A stretch of DNA of 32,703 bases from an uncultured cyanobacterium (GTDB lineage Bacteria > Cyanobacteriota > Cyanobacteriia > Cyanobacteriales > Microcystaceae): the NCBI GenBank assembly GCA_963807635.1, contig CAWEDJ010000024.1, positions 1-32,703 on the forward strand. The letters are read 5' to 3'. The notes beneath the pieces were generated by a model. It was not told the DNA's origin. It saw nothing but the letters and a program-made list of their open reading frames with translations, and did no database searches. Below are positions 698 to 30,352 of the stretch, piece after piece (the stretch's first letter is position 1; every line of letters begins with the position of its first letter). Position numbers and translations under genes: made by a program.

Positions 698-3600
698 CTA
701 AACTTTAGCATCAGGTAAAGCTCCCTTCATCTTACCCAACCAATCAATTAAACTTTCTAATTGCTGTTTCGGTTTCACTACTCCCAAACCCCTCACCGTT
801 ACTTTTTTCGGACTAAAGACAAAACGCGATCGCAGATGTTGGGGAAGATTTTCAGCTAATAATTTCCAAGCAGGTTCTTCCATCGGTGTTTCTAAAATAA
901 TATGCTGTTTCCCATCGGATTTAATGCGCGAAAAGCCAATTGATCGGGCAATGTGTTTTAACTCAATTACCTTAAATAATTGCTCCACAGGAGAGGGAAT
1001 CACGCCATAGCGATCGCACCATTCCGCCGCAACTTGGGCTAATTCTTCAATAGAATTTACAGCCGTAATTCGTTGATAGGCCGCCATTTTTTGTTCTAAA
1101 TCAGGAATATAATCCGAAGGAATAAACGCCGTCACCTTTAGATCAACTTGGGTTTCTTCTACCTTGGGAATCTCTTGTCCTTGAACTTCTTTGATCGCCT
1201 CCTGCAACATTTCCATATAGAGGTCAAAACCGATCGCTTCCAGTTGTCCCGACTGTTCCGCCCCTAATAAACTCCCCACACCGCGAATTTCCATGTCACG
1301 GGTCGCTAATTGATAACCTGAACCCAATTGGGAGAATTCTTGCAGGGCTTTTAGGCGTTGTCGCGCGGTTTCCGTCAATTCTCGCTTATTAGGGTAAAGA
1401 AGCCAAGCATGGGCCTGAATGCCCGAACGACCGACCCGACCCCGCAGTTGATAGAGTTGGGCCAAGCCGAATTTTTGAGAATCTTCGACAATAATGGTGT
1501 TAACCCTCGGAATATCTAGCCCTGCTTCAATAATTGTCGTACAAACCAAAATATCCGCCTCTCCATCATTAAATCCCAACATGGTACTTTCTAATTCGGA
1601 TTCATCCATTTGTCCATGCGCGATCGCAATTCTCGCACTAGGAACCATTTCTCGTAGTTGTCCCCCCAATTCTTCAATCCCTTCAATGCGGGGAACGACA
1701 TAAAAAACCTGACCCCCTCGGTCTAATTCATTGCGAATAGCGGTACGAATCACTTCAGGATTATAGGAAGATAAATGGGTTTTAATGGAACGTCGAGAAG
1801 GGGGAGGAGTCGTAATTAAGCTCATCTCTCGAATACCCGATAAGGACATATAAAGGGTGCGGGGGATCGGCGTGGCGGTGAGGGTTAGCACATCTACTTC
1901 AGTTTTTAAACTCTTGACTTTTTCCTTTTGATTAACTCCAAAACGCTGTTCTTCATCAATTACTAATAGACCTAAATCTTTAAAATCAATTCCTTTACTT
2001 AATAGTTGCTGAGTGCCAACAATAACATCCAATTCTCCTGATTTTAAACGTTGTAAAATCTCTTTTCTCTCCGAAGCAGTACGGAATCGATTTAACAAGC
2101 CAATATTAATGGGATAGGGGGCAAATCGTTCTTTTAGGGTGTGATAATGTTGCTGGGTTAAAATCGTTGTTGGTGCTAATAGGGCAACTTGTTTATGTCC
2201 ACTGGTAACGGCCTTAAAAATGGCTCGTACTGCTACTTCTGTTTTGCCAAAGCCCACATCGCCACACACTAATCGATCCATTGGGCGATCGCTTTCTAGA
2301 TCCCGTTTAACATCCTGTACGGCTTTCAGTTGATCGGGAGTCGCTTGATAGGGAAAGGAATCCTCTAATTCTTGTTGCCAGACTGTATCTAGGGGATAGG
2401 AAAAGCCCGTTTGTTTGGCTCGTTTGGCGTAGAGATTGAGTAAATCAACGGCTAATTTTTTAACTGTTTTACGGACTTTATTTTTAATATTTTCCCACAC
2501 TTTACCCCCCATTTTATGAAGTTGGGGCGGCTCGGCTCCACTATAGCGATAGCGGGATAAACTATCAAAATTCTCGGCAGGAATCCGTAAAATTCCATCA
2601 GCATATTGAATGACTAAATATTCACGACTTTCTAATTTTTCGAGTTTTAAAAATTTACCAATTCCATGACTTTTATGGACAATATAATCTCCAGGAGAAA
2701 GTTTATTGAGATCAACTTGTTTCGATGCCGCGCGTCGGCGTTTACGGATATATTCAGGCGTGGCGAGGGCGTGTTGACCAAATAATTCTCGATCAGTAAC
2801 TACCGCAATGCGAAAAGTCGGTAAAATAAATCCTTCTAACTCGGCAACCCCAGAATATTTAAGCGCGATCGCTGTTTTTTGGATTTTAAACTTTTCAATG
2901 GCGCGATAATCCTTGGGATTGGGAACAAATTGCACCGTACAATCATGTTCTTGCAAAAGGGAAACGGTACGAGACGGTTGGGCAGAAATTAACCAAATGG
3001 CATAATTATTGAGAGTGAAATTCGTATAAACTTCCCGTTTTCCCCTGAGAATTTCCCCTAATTTTGAAAATTGATGGGGCATGGTGGGAATCGGACGGTT
3101 TGATAAATTGAGGGCATTTTTTTCCGTCGCGTCTGCTAGTTCGGAAACAAAAATGGTTTGAAATTGGGGTTCAATAATTTCTAAAACTTCATTAAAACTA
3201 CGATGAATTTTAGGGAAATGATTATCATATTTAGATTTAATAAATTGCCATTCCTGCTCAACGGATTCTAACCAGCGATCGCTGTGGCCATGACATTGTT
3301 CGCGTTCATCAATGACACAAAGGGTATTCGTCGGTAAATAATCCAGTAAAGAAGCAGGTTTTTCAAAGGCAATCCCCAGAAAACGTTGCATTCCGTCGGG
3401 ATAGTTTCCCATTTCCAGTAATTCTATTTCTTCAGGGGATAAATAACTCGAAATATCCTGTTGATTCCTTTGAATTTGTTGAGCAATAATCGGATTAAAA
3501 CTAGTCGGTGTTAAGACTAATTGTTCAACCTTATCCAGCGATCGCTGAGTAGCAGGATCAAATTCCCGTAACTTTTCCAACTCATCATCAAACCACTCTA

Positions 3601-4183
3601 AACGAACAGGTAATTCTGCCGAAACAGGAAAAATATCGATAATATCGCCGCGCCGACTCCATTGACCCTCACCTTCTACCGACGCAACCCGCTCATAGCC
3701 CAATTTTACTAAGTTTTCATCTAAAACTTTACTGTTTTCATTCATCCCTGCCCGTAAAGTCAAACAATATTCTTGAAAAATGTCAGGATCAGGCAAATGG
3801 GGTTGTAGGGCTTTTTCGGTGGTAATAATTGCGGTTAAATGGGACAATTCTGCCAAATTAGACAATACTTGCATCTGTCCCCAGATCATTTCCGATTCTG
3901 CACTCAAGGCTTCGTAGGGAGAGGCTTCTGAAGTGGGATAAAAATTAATGGTTTTCCACCCCATGATTTCTAGTTGTGCCGCCCAGCGTCCTGCTTCTTC
4001 CAGGCTCGAAGTAATCACCAAAAGATGATTACCCAAGCTCTGAGCTAGGGTCGAACTAATTAACCCCTTGGGCAAGCGAGAAATTCCCGTGAGGGAAAGC
4101 GTCCTCTGCGCTTTTAGTTTTTGCAAGAGTTCTAGGGTGAGAGGAAGTTTTTCGAGATGACGAATGATAGAGGAAAAGGTCAT
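698..4183 (-). CDS. mfd: Transcription-repair coupling factor
   Basis: 1161 aa; UvrB-like N-terminus, CarD/RID domain ([15 protein letters not shown]), SF2 helicase motifs ([32 protein letters not shown]) and C-terminal TRCF domain. Confidence 0.98.
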
Positions 4184-4590
4184 GGGTAACGTTTGAAGGT
4201 GTCGTTAGCCGATCTTAACGCTTTAAGAGAAAGCAGTGATCGCGATTAGAGCAAGAAAATCACAAAAAAAAAGTAAATATTTCAGGATTAAGTTTAATTT
4301 CAGAACTTATCTTTCGCACACTATTATAGATTGTGCTTTAAGGTGGTTTATAACGAATAAAAACTACACATCGTAGTATGATTTTAGACCATGCCACTAC
4401 CAACAGTAAACAATTAAAGGACAAACACTAAATATGGAATCGTGAGAACATTGATTCACAAATTACGATTGATAAAGCAAAATAGTCAAATGTTCAAAAA
4501 AAAGTAAAGTTACTATATAATTGGTAAAACTATATAGATTACAAGTGTTTACATCCAAATCCTTAACGAGTTTGCTAGGATTTTTTGCCC

Positions 4591-5529
4591 ATGACATATA
4601 CAGCAGAAGACATACGAAGAAAATCCGACTTTGGCTTGAAAATTGATTTTGGGCATGATCGGAAAAATTCTGCGCGTTTTTTTGTCACTCTATCAAAATT
4701 AATAAATTTTTGTGAATTTGTAGATCAAACCTTAGCTTCTTCCCTAGACTCCTCTCTTCAGCCCATTATTCTTTTGGAAGATTTAGAAAAAGGTTCATTA
4801 CTAATATGGTTAAAAACAGCCTTGCAATTAGTAGATGATGATGCATTAAGCAATTTAAGTTTGAGAAAACTTTTTGGAAAATATGCAGTAAAAGCGAAAT
4901 ACATCTTGATTGATTTTTTAGAGAAAAAAACAACTATTTCTAATGCGGATGAAATCCAAGTACTTCAAGCTGAATTGATTAATGAATATTAGGAGACTTT
5001 CGGTGCATCTTTGTCACCTCTTACTATTAACCAACGACAAATTACTGATTGTATTCGTAAATACCAAGATGCTCTTCATGATTTAAATGAAGATGATAAG
5101 GTTTACTATTTATCCCCTTCCTCTAGACCGTCTATTCAATTTAATCGTACTTTTGATGTCTCTCCTGAAACGTTAGAAGATATTATTACCAAAGAAACCA
5201 TATCAAGCGAACTGAATATGGTTTTAAAAATCAAAAAGCCTGATTACCTCGGTGATTCTAAGTGGCAGTTCAAACATGGAAAAAATACCATGTCAGTTAA
5301 GATATTAGATGAAAATTGGTTAAATCAGTTTAGATCAAGACAAATAACTATCGCGCCTGGTGACTGTTTGAGAGCAACTGTCAGATCAGAAATTAAATAT
5401 GATTCTAATTACGAACTTATTTCAGAGAATTATGAAGTTATACAAGTTCTTGAGGTTATTCAAGCTGAATCACATATTCAGCAGAAATTAGACTTAAGTT
5501 TGCAATCAAATAATGATGAGCTTGAATAA
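4591..5529 (+). pseudogene. AT-rich uncharacterised protein (~310 aa) interrupted by a single in-frame TAG at 4990-4992
   Basis: ORFs 4585-4992 and 5011-5529 are in the same frame: AAT GAA TAT TAG GAG ACT TTC GGT GCA TCT TTG. ATG at 4591. No HIP1 site seen. No named family recognised. Confidence 0.65.
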
Positions 5530-5539
5530 TCGGCTCGTA

Positions 5540-5902
5540 TTAAACTAAACTCGGTTTACGAGTATGCCATTCTGTTGATTGTTCGTAGGCATAACCCACT
5601 CGAAATAACAGATCTTCCCGTAATACATTACCAATTAATTGCAACCCAATCGGTAAATTTTGTTTATCAAATCCGCAGGGAATACTCATCGAAGGTAAAC
5701 CCGCCAAATTAACAGGAATCGCCATTAAATCTGATAGATACATACTGAGGGGATCGGCTGTTTTTTCTCCTGCTTTAAAAGCTGTTGTGGGAGCAGTCGG
5801 ACAGACTAAAACATCAACTTTTTCAAAAGCTTGATCAAAATCTTGTTTAATTAAGGTTCTGACTTTTTGGGCCTTTAAATAATAGGTATCATAATAACCC
5901 GC
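5540..5902 (-). pseudogene. gatA: Duplicated 3' end of gatA (last 120 codons plus stop), lacking the 5' part of the gene
   Basis: Aligns without gaps to 6489-6851. Manual count gives ~29/363 nt mismatches in 23 codons (16 synonymous, 7 non-synonymous). Confidence 0.95.
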
Positions 5903-5904
5903 TT

Positions 5905-6468
5905 TTAATTAGACAGCCAACTAAATAATTGTTGTACCGTTAATTGCAGATCTTGAGCAAAGGTCGGAACGGGTAAAACCGATTCGGGTTCATCATAAAA
6001 TGTCACTTCTTGATCCGCAACATACACAAAAATAACCTGTTCTTCTGGATCAATTAACCAAGCCATTTGTGTGCCACTTTTTAGACAAGAGAGGATTTTT
6101 TTGATGGTTTTTGTCTGAGTTTGATCAGGGGATAAAATCTCAATAACCCAATCAGGCGCGATCGCAAAAACATTCGCCACCGAACCATTCTCTTCTCTAG
6201 GAATCCTATCCCAAGTAAAAACTGCTAAATCGGGAATGATTGATTTTCCCGAAAAAGTACATCGTAATTCAGGAAAAGCTCTAGCAATTTTAGGCGATCG
6301 CACCACTGCATTAATCGCAGTTCCTAATTCCATTTGAATCGCACTATGTTTTCCTTGGGGCATGGGTTTTTGAATAATTTGTCCATCAATAAATTCACTG
6401 CCAGGCTCGGTTTCTGGTAATTGGAGAAAGTTTTCTAAAGTTAAAGATGGAACTAGAGTTTGTAACAT
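5905..6468 (-). CDS. Uma2-family (DUF820) PD-(D/E)XK endonuclease
   Basis: 187 aa: [65 protein letters not shown]. Confidence 0.93.
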
Positions 6469-6488
6469 TTCAAATACCCATCAAATTA

Positions 6489-7937
6489 TTAAACTAAGGG
6501 TGGTTTTTGAGTATGCCATTTTGTTGATTGTTCGTAGGCGTAACCCACTCGAAATAATACATCTTCCCGTAACACATTCCCAATTAATTGCAACCCAATC
6601 GGTAAATTTTGTCCATCAAATCCGCAGGGAATACTCATCGAAGGTAAACCCGCCAAATTAACGGGAATCGTCATTAAATCTGACAAGTACATACTGAGGG
6701 GATCAGCCGTTTTTTCTCCTGCCTTAAAAGCCGTTGTGGGGGCAGTCGGGCAGACTAAAACATCAACTTTTTCAAAGGCTTGATCAAAGTCTTGTTTAAT
6801 TAAGGTTCTGACTTTTTGGGCTTTTAAATAATAGGCATCATAATAACCCGCAGAAAGGGCGTAGGTTCCTAACATAATGCGGCGTTTTACTTCAGTTCCA
6901 AAACCCTTGGCACGAGTCTTGGTGTACATCTCAATAAGGCTATCGGCTTCTTCTCGAATTCCGTATTTGACTGCGTCATAACGGGCTAAATTGGCCGAAG
7001 CTTCGGAAGGGGCAATGATGTAATAGGTGGGTAATCCATAGCGAAAACGGGGGCAAGAAATTTCCTGAACCGTTGCACCTAATGATTTTAATTGCGCGAT
7101 CGCCTCTCGGACTCTTTCTGCCACAATCTCATCTAAACCTTCCCCAAACGTTTCGGTGATGACTCCTACTTTGAGTCCTTTCAAATCAGGTTTTAATGCT
7201 TGGGTATAATCGGGAATTTCAACTTTCAAACTGGTCGAATCCTGGGCATCATAACCCGCGATCGCTTGTAACAAAATCGCCGCATCTTCCACCGTGCGAC
7301 CAAAGGGGCCAATTTGATCCAAAGAAGAGGCATAGGCCACCAAACCAAAACGAGAAACTAAGCCATAGGTCGGTTTCATGCCCACAACCCCACACAAAGA
7401 AGCGGGTTGACGAATGGAGCCGCCCGTATCCGAACCCAAGGCCACCACACATTCCTCTGCCGCCACTGCCGCCGCCGATCCCCCCGACGATCCCCCTGGC
7501 ACTCTGCTTAAATCCCAGGGATTAGCCGTCACCTGATAGCCTGAATTTTCTGTTGAACTACCCATCGCAAATTCATCTAAATTTGTTTTACCCACCATCA
7601 CCGCCCCTGCGTCCTGTAATTTTTGGGTAACGGTGGACTCGTAGGCGGGAACAAATCCTTCCAAAATACGGGAGCCGCAAGTGGTGGGAATGCCCCGTGT
7701 ACAAAGATTATCCTTAATGCCGATGGGAATGCCTTCTAACAATCCAATGGTTTCGCCCGCCGCAATTTTTGCATCTACTTGTTCGGCCGACGCGATCGCC
7801 TTATCCGCCGTCACACAGAGAAAACTATGGAGTTTGGGTTCTAGCGTTTCGATTCGTTGTAGGGTTTCTGTGGTAATTTCAACAGCAGAACGCGCTTTTG
7901 AGACCAATTGTTGATGCAATTCGCGGATGGATGCCAT
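6489..7937 (-). CDS. gatA: Asp-tRNA(Asn)/Glu-tRNA(Gln) amidotransferase subunit A
   Basis: 482 aa amidase signature ([47 protein letters not shown]) and [19 protein letters not shown]. Confidence 0.98.
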
Positions 7938-12051: not shown

Positions 12052-13591
12052 ATGAAATTTTCAGTCCAATCCTCCCCTAATCTCCGCCTTTCTGGCCCTA
12101 TCGCCCGCGCTTGGGTAGGCAGTCTCTTGTTATTGACAATGGGAATTGCTCCCTTGCCCACTCTAGCAGGAAATTCCCCCTCAAAATCTAAACCGACTAC
12201 GACCGCAGTCAGCCCCTCCGTCTTTCCCTCTTCGGTCGCTCAACCCAATGAATCGGACTATCTTCTGGGGCAGGCAATCGGCTCCGTATGGATGTCTATC
12301 AGGTGGAAGAATTTAGTAAAAGTGAATATCAAGTTTTAGTCGATGGAACTCTGAGTTTTCCCTTAGTAGGAGTCATTAAGGTCAACAACATGACCATTCC
12401 CCAATTGACGGCGGTTCTCAACAAAGAATACTCGAAATATATTAAACGTCCCTTAATCACCATCGGGCTTCTCCAACCCCGCCCCCTAACTCTAACTCTC
12501 GCAGGGGAAATCAACTCTCCAGGCTCCTATACCCTGCCCATTGCCCAGGGACAGAAATTTCCCACCCTAACAGATGTGATCCAACAGGCAGGAGGATTAA
12601 CCCCCTCAGCTAACGTGAGCAATATTGTCGTACGACGCACGAGTACTCCAGGTGGCAGTCCCCAAACCCTTAACCTCAATCTGTGGGAACTTCTACAAAA
12701 GGGAAATAGTAGTCAAAACATTACGATGAGGGATGGAGATACCATCGTCATTGCCAGTGAAGATAAAACTGACCCTAATCAAGTCCGCCAATTAGTCGAT
12801 GCCAACTTTGGTATTCGCTTTGATTCAGAAATCAATGTCGCAGTAGTCGGAGAAGTCTTTCGCCCAGGAGCCTATAAACTCAGTCCCACCAGAGCCACGA
12901 GTAATATTCAGGAAGTAGGGGGAGCAGGGGGAACTGCCAGAACACTGCCAACCAAAATGGTGTCCGTCAACCCGTCCGTTTGACCCAAGCCCTCCAGGAA
13001 GCAGGAGGCATCAAACCGATCGCTGATATACGGAATATAGAAGTCCGTCGTCAGAACCGTTCAGGGAAAGAAGAATTGATCACCGTGAACCTGTGGGAAC
13101 TCTTAGAACAAGGTGACTTAGATAAAGATTTAGTTCTACAAAATGGCGATACAATTTCCGTCGTTGAAGCAAAAAGCCAGACTTCGGAGCAATTTGATAC
13201 CCTCGCAACGGCCAACTTCGCGCCCAAGAGTATTCGAGTCAATATTGTCGGAGAAGTCCGTAGTCCAGGGACGAAAGAACTGCCTCCCAATACGACCCTC
13301 AACCAAGGATTGCTAGCGGGTGGTGGTTTTGATCCGCGCCGAGCAGACAGAAGTAATGTTGAGTTGGTTCGTTTAAATCCCAATGGAACGGTGACCAAAA
13401 AAACCATCAAACCCAATTTTGGAGAAGGCATTGATGAAGCCAACAATCCCACTCTCCGCAATAATGATGTCATTTTTGTCAACACCAGTGCCTTAGCCGC
13501 CACAACGGATACCATTGGGACTATTTTTAGTCCTCTTGGAGCCATTTTAGGAGGTGGTGCTTTGTCTCTTATCAATTTATTTACTAATTAA
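12052..13591 (+). CDS. Polysaccharide export protein with SLBB repeats (Wza/GumB-like); two apparent frameshifts
   Basis: Three ORFs join into one protein: signal peptide, Y.LGAG.RL..DV Poly_export motif (shift in CTGGGG ~12266-12270), then SLBB repeats (second shift near G-runs ~12915-12945). Adjacent to a Wzc-like gene. Confidence 0.85.
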
Positions 13592-28265: not shown

Positions 28266-30352
28266 CTATAAAGAATCTGCGACTAAATAGGTGTAACGTC
28301 TCAGACTTTGTTCATAATCATCCAAAAGACGTTGAGCCTCTTCAAAGGTAATTTTTTGTTCCGCCAGAGCCGCTTCCGTATAGCGACGCATACTTTCCAA
28401 TAAATCCGACCCACATCGTACTGCACATAGCTCAACACTTCCGTCATCGTATCCCCTCGAACAATAGATTCAATCTGATAACCCTTGGGATTCATGGCGA
28501 TATGTACCACATTAATATCCCCAAAAAGATTATGTAAATTTCCCATAATTTCCTGATAGGCTCCGATTAAAAACATTCCCAAATAATAAGAATCTTTTGT
28601 CAGGATTTTTTCGGATTTGCCATCAGAATTAATGGTGCTTTTTTTGCTGGATAAAATGGGATGTAATTCTAAGACAGACTTCACATCCCTCAGATCAATA
28701 AATTGATCGATCTTACCGTCACTATCACAGGTTAAGTCGGCTAAAATCCCCCGCTCTGTGGGTTTTTCCTTCAGACGATGGATCGGCATGATCGGAAATA
28801 ATTGATTGAGTGACCAGGATTCGGGGGCAGATTGGAAGACTGAAAAATTCACATAGTAAATAGAAGCCATGATTTTTTCTAGATCTTCTAAATCATCGGA
28901 AACATAGTCCTGATGACGAGTGATTTCTAGAATTTTATGACAACGAGCCCAATATAATTTTTCTGCCCTGGCTCGTTCCGTTAAACTCAAATAACCGAAG
29001 TTAAATAGACTAATGGCTTCTTCCTTAAATTGAATGGCATCGTGATAAGATTCTTGGTAATTTTTTTTAGAAATAGAGTTATAAATTTCCCAAAGATTTT
29101 TAACAATTAGATGTTCTTTATTATCTAAGGGTTCGGGGGGATTGTAGGGAATATCACTGGTACTTAATACATCAAAGACTAAAACCGATTGATAGGACGC
29201 GATCGCCCTGCCGCTTTCACTAACGAGGGTGGGAACTGCAATGTTGGCTTGCTCACAGGCTTCTTCAATCGCCCCTACAATATCGTTGGCATAATTCTGC
29301 ATATTGTAGTTTTTCGACGCATAGAAATTCGTATGAGATCCGTCGTAATCTACCGCTAAACCACCTCCTACATTGAGATAGCGCATTTTCGCGCCCATTT
29401 TAACCAACTGAATATAAATTTGGCTGGCTTCGCGCATTGCTTCTTTAATGAGGGTGATATTAGAAATCTGGGAACCGACATGGAAATGCAATAATTTCAG
29501 ACAGTCCAACATTTCTACCGCTTCCAGTTGATTCACCATTTTGAGAATTTCAGGAATGGTTAAGCCAAATTTAGAGCGATCGCCGATGGAGGTTTTGGCC
29601 TGTCCCCAATCCTTGGGATTTAACTTAGCTCGCACCCCTAAAATGGGCTTAATATTTAATTTTTGACTAATATCAATCACCAGATAAAGATCCTCTAATT
29701 GATCAATCACAATAATCGGTTTGTGGCCTAATCGTTTGGCTAATAAAGCGGTTTCTAAATATTCTCGGTCTTTATAACCGTTACAAATAATTAAACTTTT
29801 CAGGACTTTTTCATTGCGGTCTAATTGGGGCGGCAAAGTGGCTAGGGCAATCATTAATTCGGGCTTGGAACCTGCTTCTAACCCAAATTGATAGGGTTTT
29901 GCCATAGTGAATGACGGCTTCCACAATATGCCGTTGTTGATTTACATTTAATGGGATAAACCCCTTGATAAATGCCAGGGTAATTATAACGAGCGATCGC
30001 CTTAGCAAAACAAGCATTTAAACGTTCAATACGGTCAGCCAAAATATCAGAAAAACGGATCAAAATGGGCAATCCCAAATTCCGTTTACGCAGAGATTCT
30101 ACCAATATCCAAAGATCCAACGACCCCGCGATCGCCCTGGGGAGAAACCGTCACATGACCCGCCGCATTAATCGAAAAATAAGGATCACCCCAACCCTGG
30201 ATACCATAGAGATTTTCACTATCCTCGATTGTCCAGAGAGGAGCCTCTTTTTTAGATTTTTTCATGACTTTTTCGGCTTTAGAAGGCAAATCTTCCAAAA
30301 AAATCTCTAGTTCAGGTTTATTATCCAAATCCATCACTGACTCCTCAGACAT
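28266..30352 (-). CDS. speA: Biosynthetic arginine decarboxylase; about four apparent frameshifts
   Basis: LY.I.GWG.PYF, YPIKC(N)Q PLP-lysine motif, GLEAGSKPEL, KFGL, HFHVGSQI, GGGLAVDYDG, SESGRA, DLTCDSDG, GAYQEIMGNLHNLFGD. Shifts near 30122, 29941, 29898 and 28410; C-terminus ...YEQSLRRYTYLVADSL* ends at 28266. Confidence 0.93.

Follow-up and report, generated by a model that had tools for sequence, protein, structure and literature searches.

The gatA locus of this uncultured cyanobacterium carries a gene for a putative nuclease of the Uma2 family between an intact gatA and a displaced, diverged copy of the gatA 3' end. Host recombination probably produced the structure, in the form of an insertion with long target duplication in which Uma2 was carried as a passenger. 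Understood this way, the locus is an unremarkable example of a class already in print, and the interest is carried by the genome-wide set of like structures, termed scars here, and by the bias of their breakpoints toward HIP1 sites. The insertion is old and shared across strains. The window analyzed, 32,703 nucleotides in length, is one whole contig of a 4.03-Mb genome (G000; 107 contigs, 3% estimated contamination).

On the minus strand, an intact gatA (6489..7937; 482 amino acids, C-terminus TQKPPLV; Pfam Amidase) is separated by 20 bp from an intact gene for Uma2, a putative PD-(D/E)XK nuclease (5905..6468, minus strand; 187 amino acids; PF05685, E = 4.5e-35). Two bases, AA, lie past the Uma2 stop codon (5903..5904, minus strand), and homology to duplication-free relatives stops exactly there. 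They are followed by the displaced remnant of the gatA 3' end (5540..5902, minus strand), which comprises codons 362-482, ends in TRKPSLV and has no in-frame upstream start. It is a copy of the functional gatA 3' end at 6489..6851 (minus strand), which in turn is 13 of 351 nucleotides off the allele in G004, a relative. The repeat is 363 bp long including the stop (120 sense codons plus the stop codon), with a spacing of 949 bp between the copies, and the copies differ at 29 nucleotides with no indels; 16 of the differing codons are synonymous and 7 are non-synonymous. In the 4.03-Mb genome the remnant is the sole second gatA-like DNA match (blastn E = 9e-149). An earlier reading of the sequence alone had given these coordinates and counts, all of which held on recount. 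That reading was also right that the contig lacks an integrase, as a profile search of the contig for PF00589 returned no match (the six matches genome-wide are confined to contigs C28 and C93), and that one side of the insert is a non-homologous join. The gatA breakpoint shares no microhomology with the continuation of the G003/G004 type.

Gene X, a hypothetical gene of 32% GC (4585..5529, plus strand), converges on the remnant and contains one in-frame TAG at 4990-4992. Beyond it lies mfd, which encodes the transcription-repair coupling factor (698..4183, minus strand) and is the conserved far flank of a variable slot after gatA. Elsewhere in the window, one gene at 28301-30352, presumably arginine-decarboxylase-like, is apparently split over three frames, and a polysaccharide export gene at 12052-13591 is present as three ORFs; in G004 it is a single 513-aa frame.

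Relatives differ in what they carry between gatA and mfd. Three of 80 metagenome loci contain near-orthologous Uma2 genes: L111 and L113 have the junction, and L112 has no duplication. The order in G004 and L112 is gatA-Uma2-237 bp-mfd, again with no duplication; in G003 the end of Uma2 is seen, then the same 237-bp spacer, then mfd. G001 has gatA-Uma2 without a duplication, followed by a different gene, and G005 and G002 have no Uma2 at the slot behind gatA. The GatA end of the TQKPPLV type is 5' of Uma2 in all carriers examined. The interval is a variable slot, with one allele class of the form gatA(QKPPLV)-Uma2-spacer-mfd and a second, apparently, of the form gatA(RKPS-type end)-other cargo. 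The sequence 3' of the remnant also varies: gene X is found there in the window and in L113, where it is intact and lacks the in-frame stop seen in the window, and three other genes follow immediately after the stop codon in L111. Gene X occurs in 5 of 301 genomes and has no Pfam match. In the four distant ones it converges on two small genes, of which one is presumably PIN-like by its motif. The 237-bp spacer between Uma2 and mfd (L002:1264-1500 in G004; L031 in G003) holds a repeat of about 115 bp that is present in many copies across the genus and is possibly a miniature mobile element.

To account for this structure we propose that a Uma2-bearing DNA end was, once, joined non-homologously to gatA at codon 362. 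The join could have been made through a recircularised fragment and a single crossover, or through one-ended repair, and the product would read new 3' end - Uma2 - old 3' end - old cargo. With gatA sequence now flanking Uma2, the cassette would be movable by ordinary homologous recombination, and the unit could later enter Uma2-free alleles by double crossover and leave them by pop-out. Such exchanges would explain how one junction comes to be accompanied by remnants that differ and by downstream cargo that differs as well. The genome contains a ComEC-family gene. The same process probably lies behind about a dozen scars in this genome.

The same structure would also result from the mirror direction, in which the resident arrangement was gatA-Uma2-spacer-mfd and a fragment that starts within gatA and carries gene X came in through homology at the mfd end and took the place of the 237-bp spacer. 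The gatA-Uma2 arrangement of G001 and G004 may, by its presence there, be ancestral, and G003 shows only the Uma2 end, spacer and mfd; the DNA that the window has in addition to G004 is exactly 4185-5902, and gene X is low in GC and rare. We nonetheless regard this direction as unlikely, for Uma2 is the least diverged part of the locus among carriers (97-98% identical, versus 92-94% for the parts of gatA), as expected of an incoming piece, and the junction is constant while the downstream cargo varies between carriers.

Insertion by host recombination, with Uma2 as passenger, still has to accommodate the history of Uma2 itself. The gene belongs to the Uma2 / DUF820 / COG4636 family (PF05685, 121 bits against a cut-off of 27, profile positions 1-172 of 172), and its closest solved structure is 3OT2 (E = 3e-80). 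In the accessible parts of PMC2701414 and PMC3424549 the family is termed a predicted endonuclease, and no activity is reported. Divergence among five alleles is 2.0-4.1% for Uma2 versus 5.1-7.2% for the 5' part of gatA, and synonymous differences affect 4-12 of 187 codons in Uma2 versus 46-66 of 362 in gatA. The lower divergence of Uma2 relative to the gatA 5' part implies that its allele spread recently, both with and without the duplication; the Uma2 allele is younger than the adjacent gatA alleles. Passive carriage alone does not by itself explain such a recent spread.

The gatA locus is one of a dozen like scars in the genome. We screened 2,829 ORFs, all 150 aa or longer, for a non-paralogous copy of their own 3' end downstream and found 13; after one 99.7% copy beside a transposase-like ORF was left out, 12 genes with 13 repeats remained, at 82-95% identity. 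The mirror classes in the same screen numbered 7, 4 and 1 ORFs. Besides gatA, the scars are on contigs C31, C32, C37, C39, C50, C60, C69, C93, C100, C105 and C107 (L039-L049). At each of these eleven a small cargo lies between the gene and the diverged copy of its 3' end, and the scar on C105 has two nested remnants. The hosts include carB, clpB, an ABC ATPase, MarC, a short-chain dehydrogenase, a TsaD/HypF-like gene and a deaminase. Cargo of the toxin-antitoxin type is found at 7 of the 12 scars (YefM/YoeB, Phd/ParE, HicA/HicB, BrnT, DUF29, DUF433/DUF5615 and Gp49), and Uma2 at only one. The DUF29 cargo has a weak HicB match, and the DUF433/DUF5615 and Gp49 cargoes are presumably toxin-antitoxin genes. 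The remaining cargo consists of a transposase, a sulfatase and genes without an assigned function.

When six scars were checked in relatives, two, those at clpB and at the short-chain dehydrogenase, proved to be cargo-free in G003. The dehydrogenase slot contains different duplications of its own in G001 and G004, and the clpB-scar cargo sits elsewhere in G001 and G002, in a local duplication each time. Within the genus the screen was replicated by one scar in 726 kb of G005 (L206:2322-2963), with a 102-bp 3' remnant and a host gene that we take to be pdxH-like. Outside the genus no housekeeping-gene scars were found in 1.2 Mb of G015 (778 ORFs; the two hits are paralog arrays) or in 0.4 Mb of G024 (267 ORFs).

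These data bear on the proposal of the sequence-only reading that Uma2 cut the resident gatA near the ALSAGYY stretch and drove its own insertion, as free-standing homing nucleases do, a model also akin to the double-strand-break model proposed for restriction genes. Some observations speak for it: Uma2 has a nuclease-family fold, its allele is young and widespread by the synonymous counts given above, and Uma2 genes lie within gene-end duplications at 2 of 56 non-orthologous loci with enough flank. Both are independent cases from other organisms. One of these, L136:161-1683, has an AcrB-family host and a duplicated 3' end of 354 bp at 84%; the other, L175:3762-6221, has nested duplicated gene ends, presumably ArsR-like, around Uma2. 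In addition, the portions of Furuta et al. (PMC2853133) available to us already put forward DNA breakage as the cause of such insertions, that of a lone mcrA included. Against this, the genome has 39 Uma2-like ORFs, of which only one is inside a scar, and the other 11 scars carry other cargo. With unrelated cargo in a dozen like scars, ordinary recombination explains the locus better than nuclease action does. The gatA-Uma2 arrangement moreover occurs without a duplication in G001, G004 and L112. To the right of the break the gatA copies share their first 29 nt in both L111 and L113 and their first 15 nt in G000, the resident left side having been overwritten; carriers with 29 identical bases at the break would therefore not be immune on that side.

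Recurrence at gatA was also lacking in the genomes searched. The segment used as query, gatA codons 362-426, matched 386 of 401 cyanobacterial genomes, 6 of them twice, and none of the 386 apart from G000 has a tandem gatA remnant, with the proviso that a query limited to these codons would miss shorter remnants. The five other double-match genomes were rejected as cases of recurrence, their copies being on separate contigs. Four genomes (G189, G271, G284 and G353) have two full-length gatA-like genes each, on separate contigs. Uma2 was found within about 1.5 kb of gatA at 3 of 30 gatA loci, all from one genus. Taken with the 12 scarred host genes, the varied positions and cargo of their duplications and the single Uma2 in 39 that lies in a scar, the evidence does not support insertion driven by Uma2, which we judge to be quite improbable, nor does it support the suggestion that Uma2 genes spread by this route. 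The sequence-only reading had named random breakpoints and arbitrary cargo as what would count against it, and across 12 host genes, only one of them with Uma2, that is largely what was found.

The remnant has a history of its own. In a phylogenetic tree the three remnants (G000, L111 and L113) are monophyletic with support of 99/97 and stand apart from five functional 3' ends; since they form one clade, a single junction event is indicated. Among 74 close GatA sequences, 69 have an end of the QKPPL type or a one-residue variant of it, and 4 are full-length proteins with a remnant-like end (RKPSLV, RKPSLI or RKPSLTII); the same variety of ends is seen in short products that group with the remnant ORF. 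The full-length RKPS-ended alleles, known here from protein sequences, may have arisen by pop-out or by the collapse of an assembly. No further alleles turned up in two exact-pattern scans of collections that may leave out near-identical genomes. Private changes number 10 non-synonymous and 15 synonymous in the remnants and 2 and 10 in the functional copies, a contrast in decay that is not significant (Fisher P = 0.26). The L113 remnant is frameshifted, and a frameshifted fusion product of Uma2 with the displaced GatA end was dropped from consideration for that reason. The remnant is thus a real, decaying gatA allele type, and it probably still swaps tracts with functional alleles.

The remnant-type C-terminus on full-length GatA and the separate remnant clade support the proposal of the sequence-only reading that the copies represent alleles from two lineages, and the RKPS-type ends on 4 full-length proteins among the 74 sequences bear out its view that the downstream copy is a displaced 3' end of the resident type. 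The synonymous bias that it offered as proof of two lineages fails on its own, in that remnants sharing the same junction also differ mostly synonymously. A local tandem duplication within one chromosome, later decayed, would fit the extra amino-acid changes and the one frameshift in the remnants; it is very hard to reconcile with private remnant changes that are 40% non-synonymous versus a neutral expectation of 75%, and with a remnant C-terminus that is found on full-length proteins.

The junction itself is not an assembly artefact, because two independent contigs from metagenomes, L111 and L113, show it identical to the base; their identity to the window is about 94.5% in each case. A Logan contig of run X1, possibly the source sample, spans the junction by 60 bases, and contigs of X3 and X4 run past it by 24 and 29 bases, respectively; three of four runs thus cross the junction, with the bridging threshold of 31 bases reached by X1 alone. 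A chimeric assembly of two strains, the check that the sequence-only reading had called for and one that a genome in 107 contigs with some estimated contamination might invite, is ruled out by the recurrence of the junction in two other assemblies at 5% sequence divergence and in Logan contigs, and by a join without any shared word.

Breakpoints of the scars lean toward HIP1-like sites. Of the 13 remnant starts, six are no more than 5 bp away from GCGATCGC in one copy or the other, with up to one mismatch allowed. On the gene side 5 of 13 starts are near a HIP1-like site, against a null of 3.6% per side (binomial P = 6e-5), and the exact octamer is found at 3 of 13 (P = 0.014); the motif was spotted before testing, and the sample is these 13 repeats and one independent case. 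That case is the G005 scar (L206), whose remnant begins right after a HIP1-like site. At the far boundaries, which served as a control, HIP1-like sites occur in 2 of 13, and the contrast is therefore modest. The density of HIP1 in the genus is about 1,200 sites per Mb, and G015 and G024, in whose 1.2 Mb and 0.4 Mb no comparable scar was found, have a third of it. HIP1-like sites are absent from several scars in other loci (L061, L136). The carB remnant is 26 bp longer in G001 than in G000, which implies that the HIP1-adjacent start in G000 is the end of a later deletion and not the first join.

At gatA there is no HIP1 site within 60 bp of the junction. The first 9 bases of the remnant recur once in gatA, from 7259, inside the HIP1 site that reads 7265-7258, an octamer (7258..7265) kept in G001, G004, G005 and L111-L113. 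Only 3 of 1,369 gatA positions share such a 9-base property, and the other two are HIP1 sites themselves. This suggests, post hoc, that the gatA remnant was at first longer, with its start 408 bp further upstream in this HIP1 site, and was then trimmed. Spacings between neighbouring HIP1 sites in G000 are almost never below 20 bp or at 46-53 bp and peak near 30-34 bp, in keeping with the reported periodicity. Each flank of the DUF433/DUF5615 pair has two HIP1-like sites, separated by about 30 bp and with AT-rich sequence between them; the paired flanks were seen in two genomes at different loci, L040 (the clpB scar) and L060:169-221 and 1187-1237. A search for a dispersed family of the paired flank of the clpB cargo gave six loose matches and no such family.

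We tentatively advance, as a possibility short of an even chance, that in this genus HIP1 sites mark the points of breaking or joining when accessory genes are captured behind housekeeping genes without an integrase, and likewise when the resulting scars are later trimmed. At gatA the remnant would have started at 7265-7258 and lost 408 bp via the 9-bp microhomology, and self-targeting cassettes of this kind would spread by homologous recombination. HIP1 has been tied to site-specific and illegitimate recombination (PMC4390886) and to transformation (bioRxiv 10.1101/2024.09.10.611283; PMC13756078), according to the parts of these sources available to us, and laboratory work indicates that it helps transformation and recombination. 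Our literature search, which left subscription journals mostly uncovered, turned up no paper on gene-end duplications that enclose toxin-antitoxin or Uma2 cargo and are associated with HIP1. What HIP1 does has long been a matter of question, and natural scars with ends clustered at HIP1-like sites would offer a direct trace of such a role, one that can be counted. If the proposal is true, HIP1 has a role in natural populations in the acquisition of toxin-antitoxin and Uma2 genes, and cyanobacteria have a route to these genes without mobile-element enzymes.

Several known systems resemble the locus in part. Element e14 at icd is an integrative element that carries a replacement 3' end, and the order of restored gene, cargo and displaced, diverged tail is the same here; the present case is unlike that type in that its contig has no PF00589 integrase and the scars have no attachment point in common. 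Phage homing endonucleases of the free-standing kind, whose genes likewise adjoin conserved genes, replace alleles without duplication and need an immune allele, whereas the gatA locus has a duplication and a single junction, with none of the recurrent same-target invasion across lineages that marks homing in the 386 genomes with a match. In the T6SS effector and Rhs orphan 3'-end arrays, as described in the accessible parts of PMC5361080, a new 3' end with cargo also displaces the old end without an integrase, and homology-facilitated illegitimate recombination (HFIR) is proposed; there a variable toxin domain is displaced, here a conserved housekeeping tail of no evident use. Homology on one side and a join without homology on the other are shared with anchored illegitimate recombination in E. 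coli, where, in the parts of PMC3240628 that we could consult, an anchored donor gave gene-end duplications in 56 of 60 recombinants (109-950 bp in the 14 sequenced), ascribed to recircularisation and a single crossover. That system differs in being laboratory E. coli conjugation, and classical HFIR deletes rather than duplicates.

Like an insertion with long target duplication, the gatA locus places a putative nuclease gene between two long direct repeats that match imperfectly; it lacks an integrase or transposase, and its repeats cover the stop codon and leave the target gene intact. Such insertions were reportedly described by Nobusato et al. in 2000. The class as set out in the available portions of Furuta et al. 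2010 (PMC2853133), which cover a lone mcrA, orphan methylase genes and a Microcystis case, is defined by a direct repeat of more than 30 bp around an insert of less than 20 kb, with no integrase or transposase; the first screen for it sought inserts with a restriction gene as well as a modification gene. At gatA the repeat is 363 bp at a spacing of 949 bp, and neither an integrase nor a transposase gene lies next to or within the insert, which contains Uma2 alone and not restriction and modification genes together; evidence of the empty site consists of proteins alone for gatA and of the two sister scars that are cargo-free in G003. The locus departs from earlier examples in its cargo, Uma2 here and toxin-antitoxin genes at sister scars rather than restriction-modification genes, and in belonging to a dozen cases in one genome whose breakpoints lean to HIP1-like sites.
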